A stretch of DNA of 64,000 nt. It comes from a virus. Lineage: Duplodnaviria; Caudoviricetes. The number at the start of each line of letters is the position of its first letter. Positions within the stretch are counted from its first letter, which is position 1. Below the pieces are notes generated by a model, which saw nothing but the letters and a program-made list of their open reading frames with translations, was not told where the DNA came from and did no database searches. The position numbers were made by a program, and so were the translations under genes. Of the stretch, positions 6,148 through 57,294 are shown one piece after another. The DNA lies in the IMG/VR virus record IMGVR_UViG_2627853916_000003, positions 1 through 64,000 of that record; one strand, written 5' to 3'.

Positions 6148-6527
6148 GTGCGACCTCAGTTAGTTGAGGCGCTTTTTACAGGGATGGGGATGATTTTTGA
6201 TGATAGCGCATCGCGTCAATGTGACCAATACGCTAATAAATCATTGATTTTTGTTGGATTAAATTTTTTCAGTCAAAGTTCAATTGCTTGCCTTTTAAAC
6301 ATGGTTACTCACTGAAAACACTAATTTTTCGCCTTGATAGCGTGCTGTGTGTTCGGAATAATCAGCTCGTCCCTAAAAATCTACTTCCTTAGATATTTTA
6401 GATTATTCATTAACTTAAATTGATATTGATAGTGGCGTTTTTTTGGGATGGGGAATAGGAAAGGAAAAAGTCGGGCGAAAGCTCGACTTTTTTTTTGGCT
6501 TTTATCCAAAAAATAAAAGGCAAGTTC

Positions 6528-47590: not shown

Positions 47591-48139
47591 TTAGCCCTCT
47601 TTGATGTGTTCTGCGAACGCTTCTGCCAGTACCACGGCGAGCTGTTCACGTAGTTCTAAGCCCTTTTGCAACGATTCATCGTTAGACAAAAAGAACGGCT
47701 CTAAAATCACGGCTGGCATCTTGGTTTTCATCAAGAAACGCCAACCGCGAGTATCAGTACCAGTGTTCGAGATAGGCTTAAGGCCACGGTCACGCTGTCC
47801 GATAAGTCCAGCCACCGCTTTTTGTAGGCACTGCGCGAGCGCTTGGCTCTTGGCGGATTTGTGCCAGTACAATGTCTCTGAGCCTTGAACGTCCTTATTG
47901 GCCACGCTGTTACAATGTAACTCGATGGCGTAGTTAGCGCCCGAACCGTTCACGTCATCGATCATGCGTGAGTAGGTATCTCGGTACATGATCACTGGAA
48001 GAATGTCGCGCTTATGCAGTTCGGCAGCCAATAAGCTGGCTAGGGGATGATTGTATGCGTACTCATTCATTCCGAATGTTTCATTGTGCGCGCCACCATC
48101 TTTAAAACTATGGCCAACGATAATACAGACTTTTTTCAT
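47591..48139 (-). CDS. Endolysin, N-acetylmuramoyl-L-alanine amidase (Amidase_3)
   Basis: [20 protein letters not shown]. Confidence 0.92.
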
Positions 48140-48183
48140 TTTTCAGATTTCCAAACTAAATATAACTAATTAATAGTTAAGTG

Positions 48184-48212
48184 TTGACTGTGTTCGGAAT
48201 AGGAAATATATT
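48184..48212 (+). promoter_or_regulatory. sigma70 promoter of the Qrr-like sRNA, with GTGTTCGGAAT in the spacer
   Basis: TTGACT-N17-TATATT. Confidence 0.7.
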
Positions 48213-48218
48213 ATTTGC

Positions 48219-48340
48219 GTCTACTCGTTCTCCCAAGCGAGTGATGCCAACTGACGTTGAGATACTTCAATTTACTTCGACTGACAGCCTGACATTAGCT
48301 TCCAGTTTCGCCGCGACTCACTTACCTCGCGGCTTTTTTT
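48219..48340 (+). ncRNA. Qrr-like small RNA
   Basis: 5' hairpin ACTCGTT/AGCGAGT; Qrr core GCCAACTGACGTTG (48246-48259); terminator GCCGCGA...TCGCGGC-T7. Confidence 0.7.
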
Positions 48341-48386
48341 GCCTGTCGCATAGAAAAAACCAGCGCGAACGCTGGCTTTACTTGGA

Positions 48387-48728
48387 TTATGGTCGGTTGT
48401 GAACGGGCTCTATCTTGTTTGATTTAAAGTAATCAATAACAGGATTCACTCGATACGGCTCTACATGGAAGCTGGCTACTACCTGATCTTTGCGCATCAA
48501 GTAAAACTGATTTCCGTTGTATCGTACCGCATCAAATATCACGTTCATCCGGCATCCATCGTACATGTACTCGCCATCGACGCTAAGGCTTTTGCGTATC
48601 ACAAAGGATAGGCGCGCCTTGGTCGCTTTAAGCTCATTACGGACTTTAACTAAGTTAATCGCCAGTACGATAAGGAGCGACAATAATCCGCATAGTTGGT
48701 ATGCGTTAAGGTTAATTGAATAGCTCAT
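48387..48728 (-). CDS. Membrane-anchored hypothetical protein
   Basis: N-terminal TM helix starting MSYSINL; terminator at 48354-48379. Confidence 0.6.
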   Translation of the reverse strand: MSYSINLNAYQLCGLLSLLIVLAINLVKVRNELKATKARLSFVIRKSLSVDGEYMYDGCRMNVIFDAVRYNGNQFYLMRKDQVVASFHVEPYRVNPVIDYFKSNKIEPVHNRP

Positions 48729-48778
48729 ATTGTTATTTTTTATGTACGAATAGGAAATTTGTAAAATACGGAAACATT

Positions 48779-49546
48779 CTACAGTGTAAACACCTCTGCT
48801 GTCGCGTCTTTGATGCTCGGTTTTTTCGTCTGGTTGCTGCAAATGGTAAACGAAATCGCCTTAGTGAAGTAGTCCAGCGCCAAGGTGCGTTCCTCTTTCG
48901 ACGCAATGATCATTGCCTCAATCACCTTGCTTGAGCTGGCCACGCCACCAGCAAGCGGAGTCATTACCTCGTTTAGTGCATCGGCCTTGTTGGCCAGTTC
49001 TGGCGGTAAGACTGGCGGCGGCAAGGTTGCACCTCCACCCGTACCACTTTCGCCCGTTGGTGGCGCTGGTGGCGTCAATGCGCTGTTGATTTGCGCCATT
49101 AGGGACACGGCCTCATCAACATGGCCAGAAATACCGTTGATCACTGCCTCAAGCGCTTTCAGTTCTTCCTTGCTGGTAATTGGCAAGATACTCGGAGCGG
49201 GTACGTTGTCCTCTGTACCATCTACCTTGCGCTTAATGTTCACACCAATAGACACTTGCTCTAGGTCGGTTGGGTCGGTGATCAACACTAGGTGCTCATT
49301 CCATTGCGTTAACGTGGCCACGGTTGCGCTCACTGAGACATTTAAGCCCTTAAGCGTTGCGACTAGCTTTGATGCGCCTTGGTAGTCCTCAATATCCTCG
49401 CTCACGCAGCCTGATAGCTTCTCTGACAAACTTTCACACTTCACCTTAAGGGATTTACCTCGGGTAAGGTTCTCCGCTTCCTTAAGGCCGCCTACGTCTA
49501 AAAACTGGCGAAACTGCTCGATTTGCTCTTGTGTGTCTAACATCAA
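48779..49546 (-). CDS. upfB: UpfB-like baseplate-associated protein
   Basis: GGG-ATLPPP linker and N-terminus resemble P1 UpfB; next to PAAR. Confidence 0.65.
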   Translation of the reverse strand: MMLDTQEQIEQFRQFLDVGGLKEAENLTRGKSLKVKCESLSEKLSGCVSEDIEDYQGASKLVATLKGLNVSVSATVATLTQWNEHLVLITDPTDLEQVSIGVNIKRKVDGTEDNVPAPSILPITSKEELKALEAVINGISGHVDEAVSLMAQINSALTPPAPPTGESGTGGGATLPPPVLPPELANKADALNEVMTPLAGGVASSSKVIEAMIIASKEERTLALDYFTKAISFTICSNQTKKPSIKDATAEVFTL

Positions 49547-53565: not shown

Positions 53566-54713
53566 TTGATGATTCTCTCTAATTTGCTTGGTGTTACGTT
53601 CATCAATTTTGCGAAGTCGGCCAGCGCTTCACCCTTAGTCTTTCCTTGCAGTTTGTAGCCGTCATGGAAGTTCTGGAAGCCGACCTTAATCATATCGATA
53701 TAACCTTTCTTCTCGTTGGACTCCTTACGCAGTTTGCGCGCTTGGCGCTTGATGGTTTCGCTTTCCCGTTTCTGTTTGGCGATCTGTTTTTCCATTGCTT
53801 TCTGAGCGCGTAGATATTTCGCGTGTTCGCGCGTAGCGGCGGCCTTATCCACCACCGTTTTACGGTTGCGAGCGGCGGCTTTCTTCTCGCGTTCGTTGAG
53901 CAAGTACGTCTTGTTATCTGAGCCAAAACCAACACGGCGCGCTTGCTGCTTCATTTGGTTGGCCAAGATGCGTTGCCATGCCAGCGATTGCAGCATGGTT
54001 GTTGCCTTAAGAACGTGTTTACATGCCACACCGGACAATTCAGGGTTTCGGATTTTCGGGAAAGCAAACTCTTTAGGCGGCGCTATGCAGTAGTTACCCA
54101 TAGTGGCCAAGTATCGATACCAATACTGGTGACGGCCACAGTCGCAATCAAAGGAAATACGGCCAGCACACGCCAGTTGCACCGCTTGGTTGTAATCCCC
54201 GTTAGGCGGTTCGTGTAGTAGTTCATCCCACTGCTCAAAACGCACCTTTACTCGGTGTTCCTCATGTTTCGATACGCTTGAGGCTCGAACACGAATCAGC
54301 GCGATATTGTTCTTAATACCGAACATCGTGGCCTTGTGAATGCCTGTACCGTCATCGACACGGTTGTTTGCACGGTCTACGTCGATTTGACGCGAGTTCT
54401 TCACCAAAAAGGCGTAGGTGATACCCGCTGTCTTGCTGTCATAGACCTCTTTGTGTCGCTGGCGAGCCTTGTCGAACTTGATCAGGTCTTCTTTGGTAAA
54501 TCGTTGCCCTTTAGCCTTTTCGCCTAGCGCCTTTAACGCCTTGTTGGTTGGTTTGGTCAGCGTTGAGGCGGTCAGCGTTCGCTTGGCATTGCGGCGGTTT
54601 TTCTTTTGCGCCTGTTCAATCTTGTTGAATAGCTGGTTGAACTGCTTTTCATTGAGGCCAAGGCTGGCAAATGAGCCGTTATCCCGTTTTTCCGCTTCAA
54701 ACTTCTTCGGCAT
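53562..54713 (-). CDS. P1 gp25-like protein with SWIM-type Zn finger
   Basis: CDCGRHQYWYRY...ACKH. Confidence 0.75.
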   Translation of the reverse strand: MPKKFEAEKRDNGSFASLGLNEKQFNQLFNKIEQAQKKNRRNAKRTLTASTLTKPTNKALKALGEKAKGQRFTKEDLIKFDKARQRHKEVYDSKTAGITYAFLVKNSRQIDVDRANNRVDDGTGIHKATMFGIKNNIALIRVRASSVSKHEEHRVKVRFEQWDELLHEPPNGDYNQAVQLACAGRISFDCDCGRHQYWYRYLATMGNYCIAPPKEFAFPKIRNPELSGVACKHVLKATTMLQSLAWQRILANQMKQQARRVGFGSDNKTYLLNEREKKAAARNRKTVVDKAAATREHAKYLRAQKAMEKQIAKQKRESETIKRQARKLRKESNEKKGYIDMIKVGFQNFHDGYKLQGKTKGEALADFAKLMNVTPSKLERIIK

Positions 54714-56568: not shown

Positions 56569-56575
56569 GTACCTA

Positions 56576-56764
56576 TCAAAAGTAACTCTCAATCAAAACC
56601 CGATGGCATGGTTTGCCCTCATCGTTGCGAAGTCTCTGCCCTAAAGTGACGATCTTCATCAACTTGCCCTCATAGTCCCAAGGCTGGTTTCGAGTTAAGC
56701 ACTCTTTGGCTCGTTTAAGTGCTGGCGAGCCAACTAAGAGATAAACGGCCTTTCTAGGTTTCAT
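56576..56764 (-). CDS. Hypothetical protein
   Basis: ATGA overlap with the aphA-like gene; GGAGG SD. Confidence 0.6.
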   Translation of the reverse strand: MKPRKAVYLLVGSPALKRAKECLTRNQPWDYEGKLMKIVTLGQRLRNDEGKPCHRVLIESYF

Positions 56765-57294
56765 GCAGCGTCCTCCGTAGCAATGCTTGAGGAAGTGATC
56801 ATTGATAGCGAACGTTCGGCAAACTTAAGCTCTGCTTTACGCATATCAATGTCGCGCTCTACATGCAGTGTGAAGTTGTCACAGAACACGCCTTTCTCTT
56901 TCTGGTGCGCGTTCAGCTTCTCTTTAAGTTGAGTGATTTCTTGATTGAGTTTTTCAATGTACGACTTGAAGTAGGTCTCGCTGCCGATTTCCAGCATCAC
57001 CGATGCAGGACAGCGAATGATAGACAGGTCGCGGCACGTAGATTCGTTGCGTAAAAGGTCAAGAACGCGCTCACCATCTTGAGTTAGTGTGTAATTCTTG
57101 CGGTCTGGTTTGCCGTCTTGAGCTTCCAGTTCGTGTGATACTAAGCCCTTTTCAGCCATGCGATTTAGTTCGCGGTACACTTGCTGGTGGCTGGCTTGCC
57201 ATGCGCCAGATTCAGGCATGGATTTGTTTGTTAAGTCGTAACCAGTTTGTGTTTTTTGCTCAAGAATTGATAGAAGTAGATTACCCAAAGTCAT
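56761..57294 (-). CDS. AphA-like PadR-family transcription factor
   Basis: TGYDLT...WQASHQQVYRELNRM..GLV...Q.GKPDRK.Y..TQ.G closely matches Vibrio AphA; 177 aa. Confidence 0.88.
   Translation of the reverse strand: MTLGNLLLSILEQKTQTGYDLTNKSMPESGAWQASHQQVYRELNRMAEKGLVSHELEAQDGKPDRKNYTLTQDGERVLDLLRNESTCRDLSIIRCPASVMLEIGSETYFKSYIEKLNQEITQLKEKLNAHQKEKGVFCDNFTLHVERDIDMRKAELKFAERSLSMITSSSIATEDAA

Follow-up and report, generated by a model that had tools for sequence, protein, structure and literature searches.

Protein receptors, for example VqmA-phi of VP882, let phages listen in on the quorum sensing of Vibrio. Here we ask whether a phage-plasmid of Vibrio also reaches this circuit with an RNA. 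The question arises from an orphan intergenic unit at positions 48184-48340 of a 64,000-nucleotide (nt) stretch of DNA (the window), which is part of a 91,867-nt viral record (IMGVR_UViG_2627853916_000003). A preliminary description made from the sequence alone had read this unit as a small RNA (sRNA) gene whose product mimics the host Qrr sRNAs. We assign a probability of about 0.5 to the reading that the unit encodes a trans-acting sRNA of ~120 nt whose Qrr-identical seed mimics Qrr toward one or more of its targets, luxR/opaR being the likeliest.

The unit lies on the plus strand, flanked on one side by the start of an amidase gene and on the other by the end of a minus-strand operon. Its promoter, identified by a promoter scan, combines a -35 hexamer TTGACT (48184-48189, plus strand), a 17-nt spacer, and a -10 hexamer TATATT (48207-48212, plus strand), with 10 of 12 consensus matches; the transcript would start at about 48218-48220. 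In the minimum free energy (MFE) fold, a 5' hairpin (stem-loop 1 [SL1], 48218-48246, plus strand) precedes the presumed seed GCCAACUGACGUUG (48246-48259, plus strand), which matches 14 nt of the Qrr SL2 core exactly; the corresponding DNA 14-mer, GCCAACTGACGTTG, has its sole exact copy in the window at this position. The seed is followed by an A/U-rich linker (48260-48309, plus strand) that folds into a weak hairpin at about 48279-48307 and is poorly conserved between the types of the sRNA described below, and then by an intrinsic terminator (48310-48340, plus strand) with a GCCGCGA...UCGCGGC hairpin at 48310-48333 and U7 at 48334-48340. The core can form a mini-hairpin of four CAAC/GUUG base pairs, the same as that folded for host Qrr2, and a four-part, Qrr-like build is present: SL1, mini-hairpin, weak nonconserved third hairpin, and terminator. 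The 123-nt stretch 48218-48340 folds with -31.9 kcal/mol (z = -3.24), and none of 200 shuffled sequences was as stable. Hfq-type features are limited to the U tail of the terminator and the linker, which is a possible Hfq-binding stretch. A simple terminator scan with a loop rule of 3 to 8 nt did not list this terminator, on our reading because its 10-nt loop falls outside the rule. The promoter, 5' hairpin, 14-mer, and GC hairpin with T7 are thus all present where the preliminary description had placed them, as is a separate terminator (48354-48379, minus strand) formed by a hairpin at 48360-48375 and A6 at 48354-48359, which is U6 on the minus strand. This second terminator serves the last open reading frame (ORF) of the convergent tail-side operon (48387-48842, minus strand; from the ORF list).

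Is this arrangement conserved? The unit is syntenic (amidase, sRNA, tail-side operon) and shares its promoter build in four lineages of Vibrio phage-plasmids. Type A consists of the window and locus L011/L069 (123 nt); type B of 10 plasmids and loci L012, L013, L133, L181, and L183 (106 to 107 nt); type C of L037, which is identical to the 95,651-nt plasmids of three Vibrio sp. strains; and type D of locus L201 in the Vibrio genome G104. In types B, C, and D, the amidases next to the sRNA are 91%, 59%, and 56% identical, respectively, to that of the window. The 14-nt Qrr core is matched at 14/14 positions in type A, 12/14 in type B, and 9/14 in type D, and type C has 17 contiguous nt of Qrr; counted from the inferred transcript start, the core begins at nt 29 in types A, B, and C as well as in host Qrr2. 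Between types A and C the core is identical (14/14), while the 5' parts are 38% and the 3' parts 58% alike; between types A and B the core agrees at 12 of 14 positions and the flanks at 57% and 71%. The core is therefore better kept than its flanks, as had been proposed as a check of the preliminary description, and is the best-kept part of the RNA body, yet it is not invariant: one type B variant reads CAACCAACG, and only ACU(G/A)ACGUU is common to all four types.

The secondary structure is conserved as well. The 5' hairpin is kept in all eight distinct type A and B sequences, with two pairs changed on both sides; all seven pairs of the terminator stem are invariant among these sequences, and a strong terminator is kept in all four lineages. 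The type C RNA folds into four hairpins, with a Qrr-like build that is clearer than in type A. A conserved ORF is excluded by the indels of 12, 3, and 1 nt that distinguish types A and B; a 73-amino-acid (aa) ORF at 48181-48402 was likewise rejected as a gene, as it spans the promoter and both terminators and its frame is broken by indels between types. The 14-mer by itself is common: at least 119 viral contigs contain it, and in 117 of these 119 the context is unrelated. To judge from its sequence setting, the copy found here is more than chance, because it forms the unpaired center of an orphan promoter-terminator unit in a Vibrio element and is kept across flanks that cannot be aligned. The unit thus shows the general marks of a trans-acting, base-pairing sRNA gene: it is bounded by a promoter and an intrinsic terminator of its own, contains no conserved ORF, and varies less in the seed than in the body; we consider it very likely to be a real, conserved sRNA gene. 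A search of the phages collection gave no match to the unit. In a contig from a seawater metatranscriptome (run X6), both flanks match and 110 other letters replace 48233-48334; this contig may represent a further sRNA type at the same locus.

How closely is this sRNA related to Qrr? The Qrr core quoted in the preliminary description is real: GGGUCACCUAGCCAACUGACGUUGUUAGUGAA (~32 nt) is found in all five qrr genes of a Vibrio diabolicus genome. The sRNA resembles Qrr1-5 (RF00378) in the 14-nt SL2 core and its start at nt 29, the 5' hairpin, the CAAC/GUUG mini-hairpin, the U-tailed terminator, and a similar length, and it is predicted to pair at the same site of the luxR leader. Shao et al. 2013 describe the Qrr build as SL1, which protects against RNase E, SL2 with the core pairing region, SL3, and the terminator SL4 (PMC3730234). 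Unlike Qrr1-5, the sRNA is located on a phage-plasmid, has a sigma70-type promoter with a phage motif, lacks the rest of the 32-nt core, and is not predicted to pair with luxO or aphA. It shares only 14 contiguous nt of that core, with flanks of GAU versus CCUA upstream and AGAUAC versus UUAGUG downstream. The host qrr genes carry an upstream TGGCA-N7-TGC element of the sigma54 type, and none is found upstream of the sRNA start; a promoter type independent of LuxO, as initially proposed, is thus borne out.

We examined predicted pairing with leaders from G001, a V. diabolicus genome that carries a type B element, and from 15 Vibrio genomes, none of these being natural type A or C hosts. The luxR/opaR leader was located through the neighboring hpt gene and confirmed with NF040929 (428.9 bits), and luxO was found beside qrr1. 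Searching the host genome for the 14-mer with up to three mismatches was too noisy to locate the luxR leader, and duplexfold on whole RNAs without a loop limit gave meaningless long-range structures; windowed duplexes and then full co-folds were used instead. Full-length co-folds with the G001 leaders reproduce the known Qrr pairings, at -26 to -7 of luxR, at the GCUAGGU site of luxO, and through regions I and II with aphA. On the V. diabolicus luxR leader, host Qrr2 pairs through nt 25-45 with mRNA positions -26 to -7 at a predicted gain in folding energy (ddG) of -13.5, and none of 92 control leaders is as good. Type A is placed on the same site (ddG of -9.7; 12 pairs between sRNA nt 29-43 and mRNA -24 to -11), leaving the Shine-Dalgarno sequence itself uncovered. 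Type C reaches a ddG of -16.0 on this leader, which no control leader (0/92) equals; type B reaches -14.0, but pairs through a different region of the RNA, and 4 of 92 controls do as well.

The choice of site was then compared across luxR-family leaders, counting those in which pairing at -40 to -5 involves 9 or more of the 14 core nt. The 15 leaders correspond to 18 loci minus L225 and L226, which have no start codon near the match, and L227, which has no UGGCAAGG site. The core is placed on the Qrr site in all 15 leaders by Qrr2, in 13 by type C, and in 10 by type A; among the control leaders it is engaged at the same positions in 8/92, 12/92, and 7/92 cases, respectively. Of the leaders that the preliminary description had named for a check, luxR/opaR is the one on which placement at the Qrr site is predicted (10/15 versus 7/92 controls for type A), though at an ordinary energy, as detailed below; type A co-folds with the luxO and aphA leaders did not reproduce the Qrr pairings. 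A more independent point in favor of luxR pairing would be the 3' flank, which in type C (GAUAU) and, on our reading, partly in type A (GAGAU) extends complementarity to AUAUC in the leader, as the Qrr flank does not. Upstream of the invariant UGGCAAGG, the Qrr site of luxR-family leaders takes two or more forms, among them CAAC-UCA-N2-3 and CAACGUUA-N2-6, as seen when L216, L224, L223, and L228 are compared with L213 and L211; leaders L216 and L224 read CAACGUUA. It is suggestive that a UAA seed would suit the CAACGUUA form better than Qrr itself does, although this is not tied to known hosts.

Several results weigh against Qrr mimicry. The Rfam Qrr model, to which the preliminary description had looked for confirmation, does not recognize the sRNA: aligned end to end (model positions 1-108), type A scores 13.4 bits versus a gathering score of 50, with E values of 7.7 in a 321-nt search and 0.51 in a genome search. 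Type C reaches 20.7 bits, also below the cutoff of 50, and types B and D give no Rfam Qrr match at an E value of 10 or less, while the five host qrr genes of V. diabolicus, serving as a positive control, score 81.5 to 112.8 bits. No Rfam family reaches its cutoff anywhere in the window. At the corresponding places the sRNA has neither region II (ACCU) nor region I (AGCC). In Shao and Bassler 2012, where both regions were mutated, region II serves luxR, luxO, and aphA and region I serves aphA, the region II mutation in Qrr4 both influenced LuxR-GFP and LuxO-GFP repression and eliminated aphA activation, and the UGA triplet, which lies inside the 14-mer, weighs more for luxR than for luxO (PMC3262071). 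The type A ddG on luxR is unremarkable, as 14 of 92 control leaders do equally well (z = -1.2), and the site that type A chooses is a consequence of having the 14-mer in common with Qrr, so that it does not count as independent evidence. Type B engages the core in only 2 and type D in 1 of the 15 luxR leaders. The type B seed has UAA in place of UGA (CAA in one variant), and the seeds of types B and D fit neither of their own hosts' leaders (G001 and G104), which are of the CAAC-UCA form; luxR may therefore not be the conserved target of the family. Finally, RNA sequencing (RNA-seq) contigs from two runs of one organism cover the region, with the type A sequence, at a depth of 4.6 to 4.8 (48131-48364 at 4.6 in run X2 and 47929-48275 at 4.84 in run X4), compared with 5 to 15 for the flanking genes, and carry no strand or end information, and one RNA-seq run lacks 48304-48347. 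These contigs neither show nor exclude the sRNA transcript; raw-read run X21 contained 0 reads of the element and so provides no test of it.

By these comparisons, the sRNA is not a member of the Qrr family and not a full substitute for Qrr. What stands of the proposed mimicry is narrower: a core identical to that of SL2 and its predicted placement on the luxR/opaR site, offset by the Rfam score, the missing region II, the ordinary energy, and the misfit of type B. From the anatomy, the conservation, and the site choice in silico, we infer the following course of transcription, Hfq binding, and repression. The sRNA would be transcribed by sigma70 RNA polymerase, with expression following the regulatory state of the phage and not LuxO-P and sigma54. 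It would then bind Hfq and pair just upstream of the Shine-Dalgarno sequence in a luxR/opaR/hapR-type leader through three blocks, UGCCA:UGGCA, UGA:UCA, and GUUGA:UCAAC (mRNA -24 to -11 in V. diabolicus). Pairing would lower the high-cell-density master regulator and bypass the host signal pathway. Other SL2 targets may be reached as well, including the target by which Qrr sRNAs favor VP882 lysogeny. Such a partial mimic should not act on luxO or aphA, because regions I (AGCC) and II (ACCU) are missing. That the sRNA serves to counter host defenses, as first suggested, is speculative, and it is at least as likely to take part in decisions of the element itself, on lysis versus lysogeny or on maintenance.

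An alternative that we regard as possible rather than probable keeps the sRNA and changes its target: the conserved seed ACU(G/A)ACGUU would serve another target in the host or the element, and types A and C would agree with Qrr over 14 nt by accident or as the remnant of a qrr gene that was captured and then decayed. It would account for the fact that all four types share only this 9-mer and for UAA in types B and D, which breaks the UGA:UCA block and leaves these seeds without a fit to their own hosts' luxR leaders; the ordinary type A energy and the absent regions I and II point in the same direction. On our reading, both seed differences between types A and B (C/U and G/A) are also transitions, and wobble pairing could let both seeds pair with one target. 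No such target emerged, however. An energy-only search with the 29-nt seed region on both strands of the type A genome and a type B contig was set aside, with many random windows reaching -23 to -29 kcal/mol; the best site that both have in common (54563-54593, plus strand) runs antisense to a coding gene and is not above chance, and a 9-nt seed complement at 56724-56744, to which both the A and B seeds can pair, lies at chance level inside a small conserved ORF of ~60 aa (56570-56765, minus strand). AACGT(C/T)AGT, which is complementary to the seed that all types share, was not found near any gene start of the type A or B element, and AACGTTAGT is not enriched in host genomes G001 and G104 (49 and 50 copies versus 74 and 91 for the reversed control). 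Nor does another target explain why types A and C keep 14/14 and 17 nt of Qrr amid unalignable flanks and at the same 5' distance as in Qrr, or why the non-Qrr flank of type C lengthens the pairing with the luxR leader.

Two further alternatives dispense with a trans-acting RNA. In one, which is improbable, the unit acts in cis through its promoter and the RNA is a by-product: promoters would compete, and endolysin expression would depend on whether the sRNA promoter fires or is bound by a repressor. Its -35 indeed overlaps a minus-strand promoter-like site (48187 to 48159; promoter scan), a second minus-strand candidate overlaps its -10, and the multi-copy motif GTGTTCGGAAT sits between the two minus-strand candidates. 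Such competition gives no account of 14 nt, located 30 to 40 nt inside the transcript, that are identical in types A and C while the surrounding hairpin is replaced, nor of the dedicated strong terminator in all four lineages, and the TCCCAA loop of SL1, in which the second candidate has its -35, is not kept in types C or D. In the other, which we consider very improbable, there is no functional unit at all and promoter-like sites, terminator-like sites, and a chance 14-mer coincide in a spacer between convergent and divergent operons. The many unrelated occurrences of the bare 14-mer and the lack of a clear sRNA signal in the RNA-seq contigs would fit, but the whole build recurs in four lineages and eight distinct type A and B sequences with hairpins kept by differing sequences, the fold is unusually stable (z = -3.24), and conservation of the core lies far above that of the flanks. 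P1 c4-type antisense RNA sits inside the immunity operon, upstream of its own targets; an RNA of this type (immI) was rejected here, as there is no Rfam match in the window and the unit is an orphan between lysis and tail genes.

When would the sRNA be made? The first 11 nt of the promoter spacer (48190-48200) are a copy of an asymmetric, operator-like 11-mer, GTGTTCGGAAT, which occurs in the 91,867-nt genome 12 times exactly and 7 times with one mismatch, in either orientation, where chance would yield about 1.5 by our own arithmetic. Exact copies lie at 6349, 46986, 48190, 58037, 58139, and 62509 (plus strand) and 3037 (minus strand) in the window and at 73495, 81333, 83875, 83895, and 90818 (minus strand) beyond it. 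Most copies lie in spacers ahead of operons, at varying distances from -10-like hexamers, and in types B, C, and D variants occupy this position of the sRNA promoter spacer. P1 has scattered asymmetric operators, and GTGTTCGGAAT is probably the operator of the element's master regulator. Given its presence in the spacer, the sRNA is probably phage regulated, and constitutive expression is doubtful. The second minus-strand promoter candidate, which faces the amidase gene at 48209-48236, reads on our inspection TTGGGA, 17 nt, TAATAT. Its -35 corresponds to the TCCCAA loop of SL1, which is invariant in types A and B, and its -10 overlaps that of the sRNA; this candidate and the sRNA promoter may exclude each other.

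Do phages carry Qrr genes in the strict sense? Four related temperate-phage contigs of 40 to 44 kb from different metagenomes contain true Qrr sequences, at 7674-7770 of L199 (minus strand), 1752-1848 of L195 (plus strand), 5833-5925 of L194 (minus strand), and 1090-1182 of L193 (minus strand), with Rfam Qrr scores of 62.2 to 74.5 bits versus the cutoff of 50. These contigs, which are 70 to 96% alike in nucleotides, encode small and large terminase subunits, portal, protease, endolysin, and integrase, and Qrr lies at the same place beside the lysis genes (in L199, between a regulator gene and the endolysin gene). The phage-contig Qrr keeps 26 nt of the core together with a Qrr-like SL3 and terminator; a promoter scan found no sigma70-like promoter there, and a host search for these phages among 401 Vibrionaceae genomes gave only matches of ~90 nt, in 2 of them. 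Judged by model score and gene content, phage-borne Qrr thus exists in public data. Like the sRNA, these genes are phage borne, lie beside lysis genes, and share the same core; unlike it, they pass the Rfam cutoff and reside on an integrase-bearing, siphovirus-type genome unrelated to the element. The preliminary description had been aware of no described phage-borne Qrr, and indeed the literature listings, the opening parts of abstracts, and the parts of a review available (PMC10335731) yielded no paper on one.

DicF of Qin and an sRNA of VP882, the latter attributed to Sprenger et al. 2024, are reportedly base-pairing sRNAs of mobile elements that act on host mRNAs. To our knowledge, none of these copies the seed of a host sRNA. 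A direct motive for a phage to own a Qrr seed is provided by VP882: according to Santoriello and Bassler 2024, Qrr sRNAs drive lysogenic conversion of this phage-plasmid independently of OpaR, through an unknown mRNA (PMC11315295). VP882 further resembles the present element in being a Vibrio phage-plasmid with its own copy of a host quorum-sensing component, VqmA-phi, that ties its life cycle to the circuit (PMC11315295). VqmA-phi is a protein receptor that senses the host signal, whereas the sRNA would act downstream of the signal and independently of it. If Qrr mimicry holds, the element would be the first virus known, within the listings and abstract openings searched, to copy the seed of a host regulatory RNA and to act below signal transduction. 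An SL2 core without regions I and II would then serve as a natural experiment on which of the Qrr targets are important to a phage, and the question of the OpaR-independent Qrr target would become directly testable.

The wider element carries P1-type genes, namely DarB-like and DarA-like proteins, portal, baseplate, tail fibers, and a Ref-type nuclease. Close relatives of the stretch that contains the unit lie on 10 Vibrio plasmids of 93 to 217 kb. The nine records retrieved derive from V. alginolyticus, V. diabolicus, and Vibrio sp. and belong to a single replicon cluster; eight of them are circular, the ninth being deposited as linear. Given these genes and plasmid relatives, we treat the element as a putative P1-like Vibrio phage-plasmid. 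The divergent neighbor of the unit and its synteny anchor is an endolysin-type N-acetylmuramoyl-L-alanine amidase (47591-48139, minus strand; PF01520, 92.3 bits), and the tail-side operon includes, in relatives, a gene for a PAAR-domain protein.

The element also encodes an AphA-like PadR regulator (56761-57294, minus strand; PF03551, 55.9 bits). This protein is 39% identical over 135 aa to a PadR-family protein of G001, whose gene we take to be aphA from its neighborhood and general knowledge; the similarity lies in the N-terminal, DNA-binding half. PadR homologs are present in all four lineages, with identities of 92%, 92%, 39%, and 35%. One tentative scheme joins the Qrr-seed sRNA and the AphA-like regulator into a two-part takeover module. 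Both would be wired to the element's operator motif and would impose or hold a state resembling low cell density, or set the element's own lysis-lysogeny choice, regardless of autoinducers; the seed variants UGA and UAA would track the leader forms CAAC-UCA and CAACGUUA; and, taken with the phage Qrr genes, the Qrr node would be a recurrent target of phage RNA mimicry. The ~60-aa ORF at 56570-56765 (minus strand) overlaps the stop codon of the AphA-like gene (ATGA). In the sRNA itself, a pentamer not repeated in type B, CUGAC, occurs three times within 48250-48296 (plus strand) of type A, in CAACUGACG, CGACUGACA, and GCCUGACA.

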